From a virus: a stretch of 64,000 bases of DNA. The DNA is taken from positions 1-64,000 of the IMG/VR virus record IMGVR_UViG_3300013120_000110, one strand, 5' to 3'. Numbering within the stretch: the stretch's first letter is position 1; each line of letters starts with the position of its first letter. The notes beneath the pieces were generated by a model. That model was not told where the DNA came from. It worked only from the letters and a program-made list of their open reading frames with translations, and did not search any database. Below, one piece after another: positions 4,241 to 23,855 of the stretch. The position numbers were made by a program, and so were the translations under genes.

Positions 4241-4729
4241 ATGCTAGAAGAAGTTTTTGGCCCTGTGATCTCTGAGTACACCCGGCGCCAGGCCATCGAA
4301 GATGGGGTATTGGTGCAACTCAGTGGGGTGGGGTATGAGGGGGATGAGTGGGTCCCCCAGGCCGTCAAAGAGGCAGGCTTCCGCGATCAGATTGACGGGG
4401 AGGGGCGGGCGGTGCCCATGTCTGTCTGCATGACCGCGACCAGCTTCGCCAAGTACGTCACCCCCATTGAAGGCGACGGGGAAAAGCTGGCCCCCTGTCA
4501 GGATGCCAAGGGTAGGCTGTGGGATGTGCTGTGGATGCTTCGCGTGGCAATTAAGGCTTGCCGGGAGGAAACTGACACGTTATATTATAGCCTCTACGTG
4601 GTCCCCAACGTCCCGGAAGACCACGGCACCGCAACGCCGAGGGCCAAGAAGGTAAGGCTCAAATCAGTCTGCGGCCCGGACGACGACGGAACGCCCTGCA
4701 TGACCATCATGCTACCGGACGAAGACTGA
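4241..4729 (+). CDS. DUF6573-like protein
   Basis: YTRRQAIEDGVLV N-terminus, GRLWDVLWM, C-terminal TIMLPDED. Confidence 0.75.
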   Translation: MLEEVFGPVISEYTRRQAIEDGVLVQLSGVGYEGDEWVPQAVKEAGFRDQIDGEGRAVPMSVCMTATSFAKYVTPIEGDGEKLAPCQDAKGRLWDVLWMLRVAIKACREETDTLYYSLYVVPNVPEDHGTATPRAKKVRLKSVCGPDDDGTPCMTIMLPDED

Positions 4730-5839: not shown

Positions 5840-6093
5840 GTAATCACAGCCTATCGAGAGAAGACGCACAAGTAATCCGGCAAATCGCCAAGCGAGCAGG
5901 GGAGCACTTGGATTCAATCGAGACGTTTATCCAAGTGGCAACCTGCCACACCGGGCCCTGTCCGCTCAAGCTCCAAGAACTGTTGGAGGCCGATGACCTC
6001 AACTTTATCCACGACATTTGCGGGATCAAGCGCAACCTGGATACCCAAAAAGGGGAGTTACTTGACTGCTTCCTCCCCCGGTACGCAGTATAG
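5836..6093 (+). CDS. DUF6874-like protein
   Basis: PLKLQELLEADDLNFIHDICGIKRNLD...CFLPRYA signature. Confidence 0.75.
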   Translation: MSNHSLSREDAQVIRQIAKRAGEHLDSIETFIQVATCHTGPCPLKLQELLEADDLNFIHDICGIKRNLDTQKGELLDCFLPRYAV

Positions 6094-6229
6094 GAGTGAA
6101 TTGCCCATTGTGTTGGTGGGCAAGCTGCGGTGCCCTAAACCCCCATCGCAGCAAAGAGCCGGGTTCGCGCGGGGGTCCGCCTGGGTTGCCCCCGCTCGGC
6201 CCGGCATTTATCTAGGCAAGGACGGTAGC

Positions 6230-6619
6230 ATGTTCACAATAGACTGTACGGGCGACGTGGTGAAGGGGGATACGATTCAGTTCAAGGAGGCGGTGTGGGG
6301 GGGATACCGGCCCAGCGCCGGATGGCGCCATACATCAAAAAAAGGCCAGCCCCTTGGCGAGCGGGTCGTCGTGGCTGAGGTTGTGAACGACTCCTACGGG
6401 CGGAGCAAGGGCCAACACACCTTCACGCTGAGGGTGTTGGAATCAAGCGGGTACGATCCACTTGAGCCCAGTAGTGTAATCGTCAGGAAGGGGCGAAACG
6501 TCTACCGAAAGGGCACAATGCGCGTGCCCTGGGAAGATGAGGAAGCTCGGCACGTGGCGGCTGAGGAGAAGCATGAGCGGGGGGAAGAGGCTCGCAGAGG
6601 AAACCGACCTTATATGTAA
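6230..6619 (+). CDS. protein resembling the conserved domain of plant CCCH62/SAP-type proteins (DUF7699-like)
   Basis: CTGDV, SYG..K.QHTFT, KGRN.YR..T.R..W.DE..R....EKH.RG..AR motifs. Confidence 0.65.
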   Translation: MFTIDCTGDVVKGDTIQFKEAVWGGYRPSAGWRHTSKKGQPLGERVVVAEVVNDSYGRSKGQHTFTLRVLESSGYDPLEPSSVIVRKGRNVYRKGTMRVPWEDEEARHVAAEEKHERGEEARRGNRPYM

Positions 6620-6667
6620 CCCAGCTAGTCCTAATGGAGTGGGATGATGGGTCGCTTGGACCTCTCG

Positions 6668-6693
6668 CACCAAGCGGCCCGCTGGGTGTTTTT
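6668..6693 (+). terminator. intrinsic terminator
   Basis: CACC-A-AGCG/CGCT-G-GGTG hairpin followed by TTTTT. Confidence 0.55.
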
Positions 6694-6698
6694 CTCTA

Positions 6699-6727
6699 TT
6701 GACACCGGATCAGGAATCGACTAAGAT
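6699..6727 (+). promoter_or_regulatory. sigma70-type promoter
   Basis: TTGACA, 17 bp, TAAGAT; followed by GTCTGACAT motif. Confidence 0.75.
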
Positions 6728-6763
6728 TACCGTCTGACATTACCCCAGAAAAAGGAGTTGACC

Positions 6764-6952
6764 ATGAGCACCGACCAGCGGCCAGGCGAAGACGGCTTTG
6801 TAAAGCCCGAAGACGAGACGGAAACCAAGCCCCTCCGCTACGATGAGGACGAAGAAGAATGGGACGAAGAGGAGGGCGACTGGGATGAAGAAGAAGAAGA
6901 TTGGGATGAAGATGAAGACTACTGGGATGAAGAAGAAGAAGACTGGGAATAG
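6764..6952 (+). CDS. hyperacidic peptide with W-D-E-E-E-E-D heptads (possible DNA mimic)
   Basis: AAGGAG RBS; C-terminal half almost only D/E/W/Y; imperfect 21-bp DNA repeats. Confidence 0.75.
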   Translation: MSTDQRPGEDGFVKPEDETETKPLRYDEDEEEWDEEEGDWDEEEEDWDEDEDYWDEEEEDWE

Positions 6953-6961
6953 GGTGGCGCG

Positions 6962-7162
6962 ATGGACGTAGAACAGCACCATGATGGCTGGTGGGTGGTT
7001 GGGGACCCTCGGGACACAACTGGAGAGGGCTATGGTCCCCACCACACCAAGGCGGAGGCGCTAGATTGTATGCGAGCCGTTAAGCGGTTCCATCGGTACA
7101 AAAACGAACCTGGGTTCATCACACACGATGACTCCCCACAAAAAGAGGATAAGGATAAATGA
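6962..7162 (+). CDS. hypothetical protein
   Basis: GWWVVG...YGPHHTKAEA segment; coupled to next gene. Confidence 0.65.
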   Translation: MDVEQHHDGWWVVGDPRDTTGEGYGPHHTKAEALDCMRAVKRFHRYKNEPGFITHDDSPQKEDKDK

Positions 7163-7626
7163 AAAGCAAAAAGCCAGCAAAGAAATGGTTTGTTTGGTTC
7201 TACTGGCACCTTCACCATGACATTCTCATGCAATGGTGTTACAGCTACACAGGCCGAAGGCGATCAATTATAGCATGGAAAGACCACAAAGCACTCCGGT
7301 TGCGATTATTCCAGCCGGTACGGGGAAAGCTGCCGTTACCGCTCATGCGTATCGGGAACAGGATGCTCGCAGCAATGAAAGCTCGGGACGCAGCCGACAC
7401 CCTGAGTGATGAATTGTGGGAGGTGTTGGACAAAGAACACACAATAGAAAACAAGACAAAATGGAAGGCTGCACTCGCAGTATATCAGAAAGCGGGGGAC
7501 CTCCTAGACGACCTCGAAGACAAGTGCGAACAGTTAATCATCAAACACCGCAAGGCCATCCTGAAGCTCCACGAACAGGAGTGCAAGAACTGTCCCTGGG
7601 ACGGCTGGACTATCTTCGATTCTTAG
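7159..7626 (+). CDS. family A paralogue 1 (WHxxHD ... LHxxECxxCPWxG)
   Basis: Shares end motifs with 8004 and 9525 ORFs. Confidence 0.8.
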   Translation: MKSKKPAKKWFVWFYWHLHHDILMQWCYSYTGRRRSIIAWKDHKALRLRLFQPVRGKLPLPLMRIGNRMLAAMKARDAADTLSDELWEVLDKEHTIENKTKWKAALAVYQKAGDLLDDLEDKCEQLIIKHRKAILKLHEQECKNCPWDGWTIFDS

Positions 7627-7832
7627 AATTAGTCTGGACACCACCGCCCGCAACCGCGCTGGAAATGTGGGAGGAGGCGGAGGAGCCGGGCGAGCCATGC
7701 CCGAACTGTGCGAGCCTGGAATACTGGATCAACGTATTGGGTGGGCGCCGCTGCCTTGGGTGCGACCCACCTGACTTTGCCCGGGCTATCCGGTTACTAA
7801 CCACCGCTCGGGCCATACGGAAAGGGAAATAA
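7580..7832 (+). CDS. small Zn-finger protein (start uncertain)
   Basis: PCPNC...W...GRRCLGCDPP within ORF 7416..7832. Confidence 0.5.
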
Positions 7833-7833
7833 C

Positions 7834-8007
7834 ATGGATGGTTTCTGCCGCGCATGGTACTACTTCGCTGGTTCCATCCTGGGTGGGCTAGCCTCATCGG
7901 AAGCTGGACGCAGCGACTTTGCCGCTGCCACGATGTTTGGCTGCGGCGGCTGCCTGTGTTTTGCCATAAGTATGTGGTACAACCTCAAGATAGAGGAACG
8001 GGAATGA
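7834..8007 (+). CDS. 57-aa putative membrane protein (not in ORF track)
   Basis: MDGFCRAWYYFAGSILGG...; ATGA overlap with A2 start. Confidence 0.55.
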   Translation: MDGFCRAWYYFAGSILGGLASSEAGRSDFAAATMFGCGGCLCFAISMWYNLKIEERE

Positions 8008-8423
8008 GATTGTGGTATTGGCACGCCTATCACGATGCGCTACTGACCCGCTCGGACGATCCAGATTTCTTTGCGAACCGGGCGCAGGAAATTGACCTGT
8101 TTAAGCCGCCCGAACAACTGGAACTACGGATGCGGTTATTTAAGGTGGTCCGAGGTGCCTTGCCCCGAATACTAGACGAACTGTGGGCGGAAAAAGAGGA
8201 ATGGGAGGCCGAGGCGCACACAACTATTGGGATATTGGCGACCAAGAAAGCCACCGTGCGCGCTGCAAAGCGATACCAGTTAGCCATGACGATGCGCGAA
8301 GAAATAATGCGCCGCATCACCGAAAGGAGCACGAGGCCAGATGTTATGGCCTTACATGATAAAGAGTGTCCGAATTGTCCCTGGAATGGTAAGAGCATCT
8401 TGGCAGAGGAAGACAAAACATGA
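8004..8423 (+). CDS. family A paralogue 2
   Basis: WYWHAYHD, LRMRLF, LHDKECPNCPWNG. Confidence 0.8.
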   Translation: MRLWYWHAYHDALLTRSDDPDFFANRAQEIDLFKPPEQLELRMRLFKVVRGALPRILDELWAEKEEWEAEAHTTIGILATKKATVRAAKRYQLAMTMREEIMRRITERSTRPDVMALHDKECPNCPWNGKSILAEEDKT

Positions 8424-8893
8424 GTATCAAGAGTTGGAAAGCCAAATACCTGCCGGGGGAACTCAAAGACGCCATTGGTTCCCCCTTAGAGGCTGCCGAA
8501 CACTCCCTGCGCTGTTGGGAAGGGCGCCTGCCCGGCGTACTGAAGAAACACGGGCTGATGAAGCAAGCTGGGTCCGATTACATACGGACGATCAAGACAA
8601 GAAAGACTGAAAGTGGGTCCGACGTGTTCGACTTCGTTTGTCTGGACGGGGAAGCATGCGCCCTGTGTGCGTTCGCAGAGACAGAATTAAAGGAGTGGAA
8701 TATACTGCCTTCGGGAGTAATGCCCTGTTCATCTTGCCCGTTCTACAAATTACGGGGGGAGGTCCCTTGTTCAATAGAAAAAGATGATGAAAAATGCTCT
8801 CCATGGCGGGAGTGGGCTGACCACGGCGACCCTGGACCAATGCTAGCATGGTTACACACGCTAGTAGCTGAACTCAAAAAGGAGAAAAAATGA
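8420..8893 (+). CDS. family B paralogue 1 (Cys-rich Zn protein)
   Basis: MSIxxWK, HSLxCWxG, CALC, CxxCP, PWxEW, PMxxWL. Confidence 0.8.
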   Translation: MSIKSWKAKYLPGELKDAIGSPLEAAEHSLRCWEGRLPGVLKKHGLMKQAGSDYIRTIKTRKTESGSDVFDFVCLDGEACALCAFAETELKEWNILPSGVMPCSSCPFYKLRGEVPCSIEKDDEKCSPWREWADHGDPGPMLAWLHTLVAELKKEKK

Positions 8894-9519
8894 GCATCGA
8901 AACCTGGAAATGCGAATACCTTCCAGTCCCCGCAGAAAAAGCTACCGGCTCCGCTTTAGAGGCAGCGCGACACTCACTCCAATGCTGGTTGGGGCGTGAT
9001 ATGGGCAGCCTAACACGGCACGAGTTGGTAAAGCGCCCGGGGTCTAAGGCTATCTATGAAAGAAATAACCCCATAAAGCTACTCAGCTTAGGACCCGATC
9101 AGTGTGCCTTGTGCCATTGGAGCGGGTTTGAGGGTGAGAACGGACGGGATTGCAGGAAATGTCCGTTATCCCAGGCGCGAGGGGGCGTACCTTGTGACTC
9201 CGATAACCACAACGAAATAGTCGAGAGAAACCCTTGGTGCGAGTGGCAAAACCACAACAACGCCGCACCAATGATAAGCTGGCTCAGGAGGGTGATCGTG
9301 AAACTACAGCAAGAGGACGAACACAAAAAAGCTGCGGCGGAAAAGAGTGAAAACTCATTCGTTCTCGACATTATTGCCGACCTACTCGCCCTGCATCATT
9401 GTTACCAATACGCCGACCTGGAACACGCCAAGCAGGCCCAAAAACTCATTGCAGAGAAAGTACAGGGCATAGTCGTCCTAACCGCGAAAAAACAAGCCCA
9501 AATCCCCTGGAAAGGATAG
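8890..9519 (+). CDS. family B paralogue 2 with helical C-terminal extension
   Basis: Same motifs as B1; ATGA overlap. Confidence 0.8.
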   Translation: MSIETWKCEYLPVPAEKATGSALEAARHSLQCWLGRDMGSLTRHELVKRPGSKAIYERNNPIKLLSLGPDQCALCHWSGFEGENGRDCRKCPLSQARGGVPCDSDNHNEIVERNPWCEWQNHNNAAPMISWLRRVIVKLQQEDEHKKAAAEKSENSFVLDIIADLLALHHCYQYADLEHAKQAQKLIAEKVQGIVVLTAKKQAQIPWKG

Positions 9520-9524
9520 GTAAA

Positions 9525-9950
9525 ATGAGAAAGCTCTGGTTCTGGCACGCCAACCATGACGTTCTGGCGGGCGAGTTTTACGAAGGCTTTTATTGTGCTC
9601 GCAGAGGAGAAATCGAGTGCATAAAACCCAAGCGCGAACACGAGTTGCGGTTCCGCTTGTTCAAGCCCATACAGGGCCCAATACCCCAATGCGTCCTAGA
9701 CGCCTGGGCGGAGTTTAATGAAAGCATGACCGCACAATGGGTCGCACAACGCCGGTTCCTTGACTCAAAGTGGTGGTTCTGGTCCGTATACCTATGCTGG
9801 CGTGCAAGCAGGGCCGATAAAATCAGAACCCAGAAGGGGAAACACTACGAGGCGCAGCTAAACGGGCCAGAAATGGCCGAACTTCACAGAAAAGAATGTC
9901 CCGATTGCCCTTGGAATGGAAGAACCATTTTTGTGGAGGATTGCCCATGA
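9525..9950 (+). CDS. family A paralogue 3
   Basis: WFWHANHD, LRFRLF, LHRKECPDCPWNG. Confidence 0.8.
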   Translation: MRKLWFWHANHDVLAGEFYEGFYCARRGEIECIKPKREHELRFRLFKPIQGPIPQCVLDAWAEFNESMTAQWVAQRRFLDSKWWFWSVYLCWRASRADKIRTQKGKHYEAQLNGPEMAELHRKECPDCPWNGRTIFVEDCP

Positions 9951-10606
9951 GTTTGCAAAGCTGGAAGAATCAGTTCTACCCAATCGACGCGAAAGAGGCA
10001 ACCAGCGATGCCTTAACCGCCGCGCAACACTCCCTGCAATGCTGGCGGGGACGGACCAAGGAGGCACTAGAGGGTCACGGGCTAGAGAAAGTCCACGACA
10101 AGGCCGTTATTCAAGAGCGCGGGAACCCAGCGCGAAGTCTCTTACTGGAATCAACGGAGTGTGCCCTGTGCCAACTTCAGATTACAAAAAGTGGGGGTTG
10201 TGCCAAGTGCAAACTATGTGAGATACGCAGTCATAATGGTTGCTCCACCAGGATGATAGGCGAAAAGATGAGCCCTTGGGAACAATGGAGGAAACAAGAC
10301 AACGCCCTCCCGATGTTAGGATGGTTGCATAGCGTAGTGGTTCAGTTGGAGTCCGAGAAAATGGCCCGGGTCGAGCGAGAACACGCCGCCAAGATCGAGG
10401 CCAAGATGAAGGAAGCGGATACGGGGTTCATGTTCCACGATGTTATTGTCAAGCTCCTAGAGCTTCACGCTATCACGAAGGCCAGCCCACCCGATGAACA
10501 AAAAGCTGTTTGGGTCGTACTCGCAATCAAGCACGAACTAGACCGGATATTCCAAGTGATTCACACAAAACACCAAGAAGCTAAGGGGGTAGAGGATGAT
10601 GGATAG
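9947..10606 (+). CDS. family B paralogue 3 with helical C-terminal extension
   Basis: MSLQSWK, HSLQCWRG, CALC; ATGA overlap with A3. Confidence 0.8.
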   Translation: MSLQSWKNQFYPIDAKEATSDALTAAQHSLQCWRGRTKEALEGHGLEKVHDKAVIQERGNPARSLLLESTECALCQLQITKSGGCAKCKLCEIRSHNGCSTRMIGEKMSPWEQWRKQDNALPMLGWLHSVVVQLESEKMARVEREHAAKIEAKMKEADTGFMFHDVIVKLLELHAITKASPPDEQKAVWVVLAIKHELDRIFQVIHTKHQEAKGVEDDG

Positions 10607-11551: not shown

Positions 11552-11821
11552 ATGGAATGTAACTCATGTAAAAAAGAGGTAGATTCGGTAGTCTGCCTCT
11601 GTGAATCGTGCTACGACGGTACGCTCACGACCTGCACGAACCTATTATCCGCCCTCACGCTAGCCCAAGAGGTTGGACAATACTGGCGGAAGGACTGGTC
11701 GGGGTTCGATGGCCGCACCCTACGCGACCAAATGAGCGACCTCGGGGCAGTAGCGAGTGGGACCCTAAAACCGGAGCATTACCGGGAGAACTGGGGGCTA
11801 GATGAACCGGACGGGGATTGA
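11552..11821 (+). CDS. hypothetical protein with N-terminal Zn module
   Basis: MECxxC...SVVCLCESCYD shared with 13025 ORF. Confidence 0.65.
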   Translation: MECNSCKKEVDSVVCLCESCYDGTLTTCTNLLSALTLAQEVGQYWRKDWSGFDGRTLRDQMSDLGAVASGTLKPEHYRENWGLDEPDGD

Positions 11822-12551
11822 ATACGCAGACCTGACTTGGAACCCCATCACGGGTTGCACGAACCAGTTAGAGTGCCGTGAGCATTGCTGGGCTCGTAAG
11901 ATGGCGCTGCGCCTACGGGGGCGAAATGGCTACCCTGCCGATGATCCGTTCCGCCCGGCCTTCCATCCTGACCGCCTGATAGAACCGAGCCAACGCGCAA
12001 AACCCGCCCGGATTGCCACCTGTTTTATGGCGGATATGTTCTGTACTGGCGTACCAGCTTGGTGGATCGAGAGCGTTTGGGAAACAATGAGAGCGTGTCC
12101 CCACCATACGTTCCTTATATTAACAAAACAGCCCCAGCGGTTTACGAACAAGGAACTACTACTTGCCCTACCGGGTCTATTGCCGAACGTCTGGGTTGGC
12201 GTATCCTGTTGCAATCAGGCAACCGCCGACGAACGGATACCGTGGTTACTGAAATGCCCCGCTGCGATACACTGGTTGAGCCTTGAACCGATATTGGCCC
12301 CAATCAACATCGCGCCATTTATATCGGCTGGGATCGACTGGTGTGTTGTCGGCGGGGAAAGCGGCCACGGCGCTAAGCTAGTCCACGCTGACTGGGTGCG
12401 TACTATCCGCGACCAATGCCAACAGGCTCAAATACCATTCTTCTTTAAGCAATGGGGGGTAGGGATGGGGGGTGGGAGCGTAAAGGCTACGGGCCGGGTA
12501 CTAGATGGTCGAGAGTGGAGCGAAATGCCGAGGAGTTACAATGGAAGTTGA
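11802..12551 (+). CDS. DUF5131 (phage Gp37/Gp68) family protein
   Basis: TGIEYADLTWNPITGC...C..CWA, MADMF, LTK.P.R, SLEP, VVGGESG, PFFFKQWG. Confidence 0.9.
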   Translation: MNRTGIEYADLTWNPITGCTNQLECREHCWARKMALRLRGRNGYPADDPFRPAFHPDRLIEPSQRAKPARIATCFMADMFCTGVPAWWIESVWETMRACPHHTFLILTKQPQRFTNKELLLALPGLLPNVWVGVSCCNQATADERIPWLLKCPAAIHWLSLEPILAPINIAPFISAGIDWCVVGGESGHGAKLVHADWVRTIRDQCQQAQIPFFFKQWGVGMGGGSVKATGRVLDGREWSEMPRSYNGS

Positions 12552-22304: not shown

Positions 22305-23855
22305 TCACGCCGCTTCCCCCCTCAGTGTACTCGTTGGAACCCGATCCATACGGCGCCACCAATCGCCTTCCTCCACAGGCATGAGCGGCAAGGTTCGGGG
22401 AGGCCAATACCCATACTTGTGACAAAACCAGCCCTCCGCCTGCCGGAAGGTACGCCCCGCCCGGCGCTGGCTCCAGTACATACTTCGCCATAGCTTCTCA
22501 GTGTTACTATATTGCCTAGTCACGCGGGGCCGGAGAATATCGCCCTGAATCCGCCGCAAAGTACCGTCGATCTCCACCACCCAGCGGCTTAGAGTATGGT
22601 TGATGTGCCCGCATAGGTAGCACTCCCTCCCCCAATCCCGTGTCGCCCCACACTTCGAGCAAATGATTGGGTCTAGGTTTTTCTTCTCCCGCAACCGCTC
22701 TTGCCTCTCGCCCACCACCCGGTTATTGGTAAGCTCCAGGTCCCAGACTCTATCCGCATCCAGGCTACCATGCCGCCACCAATTTCCCCCATGGTCGATG
22801 ATTATAGCCCGATCCTTACCGGGAAAAGAGCGTAGCATCCGGCCACCAGTCTGGAGGTATGAAGTGAGGGCCCCGAAGCAAGTGGCGAGACAGCCGCACC
22901 CAATCCAGGGTGCGTTAATCCCTTCCCTGAGCACGAACCGATTACAGACAACCTTGACCTCCCCTGACCTCGACATTGCCATCACCTTCTCGCGCATCTC
23001 TTGGGAGGTACTATGAAACTCACCATCTAGCCACACGTCGGAGCCGTCGATGTGGGCCGACCTGATCCCCGCTGCCCTGAACCGCTCGGCAAACCAAATA
23101 CTCTCGCGCACACCCGGGGCAAACAAGAGCGTAGGCTTTCTCGTTGGGTTGAAAATCTCCCAGTTCTTCAGCACCCGCCCGAAAATCCCATGCCGCATCA
23201 TCACTGTTGCGTTGTCCTTTTCACTCAGGTCCTTACCCACGTCGTAACGCCTGATATGTCTTAGGTCTGGTTCGTCAGGGGCGTAGGTGTCGGCGGGTAC
23301 AATCGCACCCACCTCACGCATTTCGGATGGCGTACCAGCAATGACTAGCTCATCGTAAATGTCCCCAATCCCAAGTGGTGTAGCGGTATAACCAACACAA
23401 GCAGCACCCGCGTCAGTATGCTCATCGACTATCCTCCGCATCGTGTCTTTGGTTTGTACGTGTGCCTCATCTATTAAAATCAGCCGGGCTGGATGTAAAG
23501 AGCGGCGCCCTTGCTGAAAGACCCTGCTCAATTCAGTCTGCGTCATACAGAGTTGCACGTTCCGTAAGAGAGCGGGGTCATGCCCACTAGCTCGCTTGCC
23601 GTGCTCGATCCCGGCCTCCTCCAAAAACCGGCTCGTTTGGTCGAACAACATCCGGCGATTAGTGTAGAGCGCTACTTGCCAATTTTTCGCGTGGCGGGCC
23701 CAGGCAATCATGTCCTGCATCATCTGTGTCTTGCCTGTCCCGGTGGGGGAGGTGACACAGATTCGCTTAGCTCCACTCTCAATAGCCGAGGTGGTCTGGT
23801 CTAGGGCTCGGACTTGATTGGGCCAGGGGTCTACCACTTTCTGAACTTCCTCCAC
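22305..23855 (-). CDS. SF2 (DEAH-box) helicase with C-terminal Zn ribbon
   Basis: PTGTGKT, IDEAH, TATP, LREGIN, QTGGRMLR, IIDHGGN, CxxC. Confidence 0.93.
   Translation of the reverse strand: MEEVQKVVDPWPNQVRALDQTTSAIESGAKRICVTSPTGTGKTQMMQDMIAWARHAKNWQVALYTNRRMLFDQTSRFLEEAGIEHGKRASGHDPALLRNVQLCMTQTELSRVFQQGRRSLHPARLILIDEAHVQTKDTMRRIVDEHTDAGAACVGYTATPLGIGDIYDELVIAGTPSEMREVGAIVPADTYAPDEPDLRHIRRYDVGKDLSEKDNATVMMRHGIFGRVLKNWEIFNPTRKPTLLFAPGVRESIWFAERFRAAGIRSAHIDGSDVWLDGEFHSTSQEMREKVMAMSRSGEVKVVCNRFVLREGINAPWIGCGCLATCFGALTSYLQTGGRMLRSFPGKDRAIIIDHGGNWWRHGSLDADRVWDLELTNNRVVGERQERLREKKNLDPIICSKCGATRDWGRECYLCGHINHTLSRWVVEIDGTLRRIQGDILRPRVTRQYSNTEKLWRSMYWSQRRAGRTFRQAEGWFCHKYGYWPPRTLPLMPVEEGDWWRRMDRVPTSTLRGEAA

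Follow-up and report, generated by a model that had tools for sequence, protein, structure and literature searches.

Two gene families near the left end of a phage genome

The window analysed here comprises the first 64 kb of a 78,709-bp record of an uncultured phage (IMGVR_UViG_3300013120_000110), which carries direct terminal repeats. At 7159-10606 it harbors six small genes that an earlier note on this DNA had sorted into two families of three copies each. Hidden Markov models (HMMs) built without the window sequences confirmed this assignment, recovering all six proteins (E <= 4e-24) as A1/A2/A3 and B1/B2/B3. The genes lie on the plus strand in the order previously described (A1..A2-B1-B2-A3-B3), to which two small open reading frames (ORFs; 7665-7832 and 7834-8007) have to be added between A1 and A2. 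The product of A1 (7159..7626, 155 amino acids (aa)) combines a split His/Cys core with a 70-aa non-repetitive coiled-coil hairpin, and in A2 (8004..8423, 139 aa) and A3 (9525..9950, 141 aa) the core residue H19 is replaced by Tyr and Asn, respectively. B1 (8420..8893, 157 aa) is a Cys5His2 domain only, and B2 (8890..9519, 209 aa) and B3 (9947..10606, 219 aa) both continue into a helical C-terminal extension missing from B1 (ca. 60 aa in B2, with weak similarity between the two, BLAST E = 0.01). A kinship between the families themselves was considered and rejected, as hhalign gave a probability of 5% and nothing is shared beyond a CxxCP knuckle.

Both families prove to be genuine, and they are widespread among environmental viruses. 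A word-based search retrieved 112 relatives of family A, and scans located it in 41 loci of viral origin and in no fewer than 475 stretches of metagenome sequence. An exhaustive profile search for family B returned 3,305 representatives at 50% identity (2,897 at E <= 1e-10), nearly all of them stand-alone proteins of 120-150 aa in which the profile match starts at residue 1; the long forms are either B-B tandem fusions or B followed by an unnamed tail without a recorded Pfam domain. A profile scan of the representative genomes of 185,579 species found family B in three contigs of metagenome-assembled genomes (MAGs). One of them (L162, 79,286 bp), binned with a Tepidisphaeraceae MAG, has a single B gene along with a helicase that shares 46% identity with that of the window (22305-23855), and may be a related phage binned with a Planctomycetota host, which would give a lead to the host. 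The names of many family-A contigs (Hain-H.., SDBT/SDBU/SDBV, LCGC14 marine sediment) suggest groundwater or sediment, and, going by contig names only, both may be characteristic members of subsurface viromes.

Family A: a compact core with an inserted hairpin

Conservation in family A, computed over 233 distinct rows of the alignment, is concentrated in two blocks. The N-terminal block holds H17 (95%), H19 (92%), H20 (97%), R33 (97%), K41 (97%) and R47 (98%), with I37, R49 and L50 as further conserved positions, and the C-terminal block holds H138 (95%), C142 (94%), C145 (96%) and W147 (96%), along with P146, G149 and I152. The AlphaFold2 (AF2) model of A1, predicted from a 44-sequence alignment (predicted local distance difference test, pLDDT, 93.5; predicted template modelling score, pTM, 0.82), shows a short beta-hairpin (14-16/24-26), helices at 30-40 and 44-50, a long antiparallel helical hairpin (helices 60-93 and 96-129), a helix at 131-141 and a Cys knuckle. 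In the resulting core of ca. 70 aa, the beta-hairpin holds W-H-x-H-H and is followed by two short helices with R33/K41/R47/R49, the C-terminal helix and knuckle read L-H-x3-C-x2-C-P-W-x-G-x-T-I-F, and the coiled-coil hairpin is inserted between G-x-L-P and L-H.

Nature provides family A proteins with hardly any middle segment, e.g., P0085 (95 aa), and three metagenome proteins (P0096, P0097, and P0089) join the A core, with an insert of ca. 6-8 aa, to N-terminal pentapeptide repeats of the ADLRG type. These hairpin-less forms and fusions show that the conserved blocks make up a single compact core into which the hairpin has been inserted, and the fusions further indicate that the core combines with different rod-like repeat modules. 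The proposal that the N-terminal His residues and the C-terminal His/Cys residues flank a long hairpin was borne out (H17/H20 and H138/C142/C145, around the helices given above). A single zinc ion, bound by one distal His and by H138, C142, and C145, would tie the halves of the core together, and a metal site closing the hairpin in this way would fit the core-plus-insertion anatomy. A basic, nucleic-acid-binding core was rejected as a family-wide property, given a median net charge of 0 (range -9 to +10), A1 itself being basic.

The insert ranges from 6 to 161 aa (median 63) and is 23% Ala. Its period-7 self-identity is at least 0.35 in 57 of 100 inserts, and the underlying DNA consists of 21-nt tandem arrays, with 22.2 copies in one locus (L068) and 5.7 in another (L040). 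Among the 16 pairs of family A proteins with cores at least 85% identical, insert length differs in every one, and in 11 of them by a multiple of 7 aa; two paralogues on one contig even have identical cores and inserts of 71 vs 109 aa. The middle segment, whose diversification the earlier note had proposed to look for, varies in length between near-identical cores, mostly by heptads, and the hairpin looks like a freely length-variable arm. Family A in general can be described as an in-frame variable number tandem repeat (VNTR) coiled coil, i.e., repeat-encoded and variable in copy number among close relatives, a description that does not extend to the window copies. No DNA tandem repeat was found in A1-A3 and the period-7 self-identity of their inserts does not exceed 0.17, which explains why their central segments appeared unrelated on first reading, an impression that holds.

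Family B: a conserved Cys5His2 domain

Over the 155 rows aligned for family B, ten positions are invariant (W6, W33, G35, H44, C80, L82, C83, C103, C106, and C117), and H28 and M141 reach 99%. Together they outline a Cys5His2 domain of ca. 130 aa, with C80-x2-C83 and C103-x2-C106, preceded by a near-invariant N-terminus close to M-S-I-E-T-W-K-x-E-F-Y-P. The AF2 model of B1 (pLDDT 90.4, pTM 0.84) is an alpha/beta domain, and the conserved residues suggest that family B holds one or two metal sites. Of the motifs described earlier, HSLxCWxG is present in the window copies, its Cys being peculiar to this phage: B1-B3 have Cys32 and Arg36 where family B at large has Lys (98%) and Leu (92%). This change is lineage-specific, adjoins the invariant W33/G35, and possibly adds an extra ligand.

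Local duplication history

In a tree of 45 B rows, B1-B3 form one clade (support 99/92) within which B1 and B2 are sisters (98/87). A tree of 63 A-core rows joins A2 to A3 as its sister (94/89) and puts A1 elsewhere, grouped with P0008, P0030, and P0082 (99/83); pairwise BLAST agrees with the latter tree (A2-A3 5e-25 vs A1-A2 9e-12). These topologies fit the duplication of one A-B pair, giving A2-B1 and A3-B3. A tandem duplication producing B1 and B2, with loss of the tail in B1, would have come after it, and A1 would be of older or separately acquired origin. An A-B pairing specific to this phage lineage is conceivable, though it would go back to a single duplication event.

Families A and B rarely occur together

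The earlier note had suggested that A and B may be cognate pairs, a claim that it staked, among other things, on their homologues being neighbors in other genomes. When 76 viral loci (+-6 kb) were searched in six frames with the HMMs, a single one (L040) turned out to contain both families, within about 2 kb and with several unrelated ORFs between. Nor was the partner family found in 20 whole records carrying one of the two: family A was absent from ten B-bearing records (nine viral and one MAG, five of them rated 100% complete) and family B from ten A-bearing records (four rated 100% complete), in a search that, as a positive control, recovered every A and B copy in the genome from which the window comes. 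No A-B fusion was seen among the long B forms. Each family also expands in the absence of the other, B to three copies in L002, five to six in L014, and two in L033, and A to four copies in L049 and two in several loci. The L014 array spans 5953-8205 of a 76-kb viral contig; its pieces 6422-6613 and 6604-6825 resemble one B copy split by a frameshift, and a similar split copy occurs in L016.

Since the homologues are not co-located elsewhere, let alone in most carrier genomes as a conserved two-gene module would be, the general form of the claim has to be given up; the A-B module looks like a local arrangement, and cognate pairing as a general rule is not supported. Of 79 metagenome A loci, only two, which are related to each other (L088 and L102), contain a distant B-like ORF; it lies immediately upstream of the A gene (E about 1e-4). 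These Cys-rich ORFs of 220-285 aa (L088:3828-4490 and L102:289-1143) match the middle of the B profile only (CxxC...CxxCPL) and may represent a distant B-like family.

We found no conserved neighbor family around A or B genes. Their neighbors elsewhere include RecT, ERF, DnaB, gp32, SSB, DNA pol A, C5/N6 methylases, HNH, and DUF5131, so residence in the same kind of genome module (replication, recombination, DNA modification) suffices to account for occasional A-B proximity.

Operon layout and neighboring genes

The block lies, as previously stated, downstream of a sigma-70-like promoter, TTGACA-17-TAAGAT (6699..6727, plus strand), that matches the consensus at 10 of 12 positions and that precedes the whole operon. 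The first gene of the operon (6764..6952, plus strand) encodes a hyperacidic peptide with Trp at 7-residue spacing and contains 21-nt tandem repeats (Tandem Repeats Finder, TRF: period 21, 5.1 copies, positions 6842-6948); this period equals that of the repeats encoding family A hairpins in other phages. It is followed, on the same strand, by a 66-aa ORF (6962..7162) whose stop overlaps the start of A1 via ATGA. Of the two ORFs between A1 and A2, likewise on the plus strand, one (7665..7832) encodes a 55-aa CxxC...CxxC zinc-ribbon-like protein that belongs to neither family and whose longer frame has no Pfam match, and the other (7834..8007) a hydrophobic protein of 57 aa whose stop overlaps the start of A2, again via ATGA.

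Start/stop overlaps of this kind occur at five junctions of the operon (7159, 8004, 8420, 8890, and 9947). Those at A2-B1 and A3-B3 are present as the earlier note reported, and its use of them as a mark of A-to-B coupling does not hold, since the overlaps at five junctions make them a style of this operon.

Beyond B3 there are small genes and then a DUF5131 gene (11802-12551, E 2.2e-72), a family that we also saw beside A genes and beside B genes in other phages. On the other side of the block, the window genes at 4241-4729 and 5993-6619 match DUF6573 (E 7.5e-13) and DUF7699 (E 1.7e-22).

What the block may be

We consider it reasonably probable that two independent families of small metal-binding proteins, both virus-specific, have expanded locally in this block, each protein being an early binder that acts alone. 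Its position next to a promoter and near the end of the genome, the DNA-metabolism neighbors, the small size of the proteins, and their predicted metal ligands all point to early-expressed binding proteins, and from these features we infer metal binding, early timing, and a binding function. A tightly packed early operon would host the expansion, its timing being read from the promoter-like site, which lies close to where the record begins on the left. A zinc site would join the two halves of the A core around the hairpin. In most relatives the hairpin would be an Ala-rich heptad array built from 21-nt repeats, with fast gain and loss of whole heptads, and the three hairpins of the window would have degenerated into unrelated, non-repetitive helices. 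Each protein would most likely act on its own, binding some macromolecule, of the host or of the phage, that is involved in DNA metabolism or host takeover. Both cores are strongly conserved, which suggests a conserved target or a conserved chemistry rather than a pure arms-race inhibitor.

Several observations weigh against this account. The evidence for metal binding consists of conserved His and Cys residues (candidate ligands conserved at 94-100%), and the strong conservation of family B, including its N-terminus, would be compatible with an enzyme or a cofactor carrier no less than with a binder. The variable charge of the A core gives no hint of nucleic-acid binding. Structural matches for family A are all dominated by the hairpin, and hence speak for the hairpin and not for the core, and the libraries searched yielded no homologue of known function for either the A core or B. 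The unit-duplication history is drawn from two short, long-branched trees with moderate support for A2+A3. Finally, both A-B junctions in this lineage have kept tight coupling, which, together with the B-like ORF upstream of A in L088 and L102, leaves room for an A-B interaction particular to the lineage.

That last point leads to the idea of the earlier note in its full form, i.e., that A and B are cognate partners in heteromeric complexes, the pairs having been multiplied to hit several host targets. The adjoining A2-B1 and A3-B3 genes with their ATGA overlaps, tree topologies compatible with duplication of an A-B unit, the single locus with both families within about 2 kb, and the two loci with a B-like ORF would all be expected under it. 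We nevertheless judge it improbable: unrelated ORFs intervene in that single locus, the only one among the 76; the other family is missing from all 20 whole single-family records, nine of them rated 100% complete; and B arrays without A, A arrays without B, and the lack of A-B fusions among the long B forms all argue the other way. In the window itself A1 is without a B partner and B2 without an A partner, and some of the ATGA overlaps do not join A to B at all. Viewed as a whole, the earlier interpretation is partly supported.

It is also conceivable, though in our view rather unlikely, that both families are fast-evolving anti-defence inhibitors whose paralogue arrays and variable hairpins stem from an arms race with host immunity. 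The operon opens with a hyperacidic, possibly DNA-mimic peptide, both families show multi-copy, lineage-specific expansions, the A hairpin is hypervariable, and the pentapeptide repeats joined to some A cores have a fold that occurs in the DNA mimics Qnr and MfpA. Typical anti-defence families are narrow, however, and the cores seen here are strongly conserved over thousands of clusters; moreover, the hairpin varies mostly in repeat number and not in targeted surface residues, and neither Pfam nor PHROGs yielded a match to a known defence or anti-defence family. Even less can be said for the A core as a beta-beta-alpha metal domain (His-Me/HNH-like) that is catalytic or binds nucleic acid, or as a DksA/Gre-like protein that binds RNA polymerase and probes it with the hairpin. 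The A1 model does have a beta-hairpin with H-x-H-H followed by a helix, R33, K41, R47, and R49 are conserved, a zinc-bound globular part with a coiled-coil hairpin recalls DksA/GreA, and DNA-metabolism genes are among the neighbors. Yet none of 44 A members has an HNH, His-Me, or DksA match in Pfam, no PDB sequence matches, H19 is lost in A2 and A3, a hairpin of 6-161 aa is unlike a probe of fixed length, and the core is not consistently basic, which together make this very unlikely.

A bolder version of what we favor, and one that we put forward as a tentative possibility, would make A an undescribed class of phage protein, in which a zinc-clamped mini-domain bears an Ala-coil hairpin encoded by in-frame 21-nt repeats, with a heritable series of arm lengths made by slippage, so that some early function of the phage would have a contingency locus, and would make B a virus-only metalloprotein family of new fold (> 3,300 clusters), the two perhaps forming a co-duplicating functional pair in this phage lineage. 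Whichever reading is preferred, what is new is the two undescribed families, and within them chiefly the hairpin that repeats encode in A and the fold of B, for which no match was found. Absent from every family and structure library searched, the A core and B represent substantial pieces of viral dark matter. Since both have high-confidence models, and B is without a solved structural relative, they are good targets for structural and functional work. In family A, moreover, an antiparallel coiled coil occurs naturally at many different lengths while its base stays constant. These lengths are generated by in-frame 21-nt repeats, an unusual source of variation in a small early phage protein. 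In annotation, A and B call for one model each, as separate families, and not for a joint model of a two-gene system.

Comparison with known families and systems

As the earlier note had concluded, neither family can be assigned to a characterised protein. Neither the A core nor B had a significant match in Pfam, PHROGs, or NCBIfam, whether window copies or typical members were used, nothing significant came out of the PDB when its sequences were searched with profiles of A, short A, and B, and tblastn of A1, B2, P0021, and P0124 found no match among 50,697 GenBank phage records. Matches in the ESM Atlas were to unnamed viral clusters only, the structure search found no known fold matching B, and a literature search found no description of either family.

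Partial resemblances are nonetheless instructive. The Ala-rich inserts of family A match Alanine_zipper and tail-fibre models, and the A core does not. For the alanine-zipper/Lpp-type coiled coils (PF11839) the match extends to the inserts of 9 of 44 A members, is a compositional resemblance limited to the insert, and is absent from the three A copies of the window. Pentapeptide repeats (PF00805, Qnr/MfpA type), which the three fusion proteins P0089, P0096, and P0097 carry N-terminally, are likewise absent from the window proteins. The HNH/His-Me finger had no Pfam match in the six window proteins or the 44 A members, and the structural matches were filled by the hairpin.

In overall layout, judging from the A1 model, family A resembles DksA/TraR and GreA/GreB, which combine a small globular zinc-holding part with a long antiparallel coiled-coil hairpin and of which phage-encoded versions exist. 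It differs from them in that none of the six window proteins or 44 A members matches the Pfam model zf-dskA_traR, and in that its putative ligands are His/His/Cys/Cys split across the insert, as opposed to the C4 finger of DksA. Furthermore, DksA/Gre hairpins are fixed in length, whereas that of family A is an insertion of 6-161 aa, sometimes absent and variable between near-identical cores.

The nearest precedent known to us for the hairpin arrays is NeuO, in which tandem DNA repeats reportedly add heptads to the coiled-coil part of the protein; these repeats are said to be 7 nt long and to switch the reading frame (phase variation). The repeats of family A differ in being 21 nt long, in frame, and inside a domain, and the proteins are unrelated. 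NeuO is encoded by prophage CUS-3 and is an O-acetyltransferase whose activity, capsule O-acetylation, is reported to be phase-variable (PMC3046976).

Family B, for its part, is reminiscent of WhiB-like or treble-clef/zinc-ribbon phage regulators in its small size, its richness in Cys, and its paired CxxC knuckles, and a further likeness is that it sits in the early and replication modules of phages.

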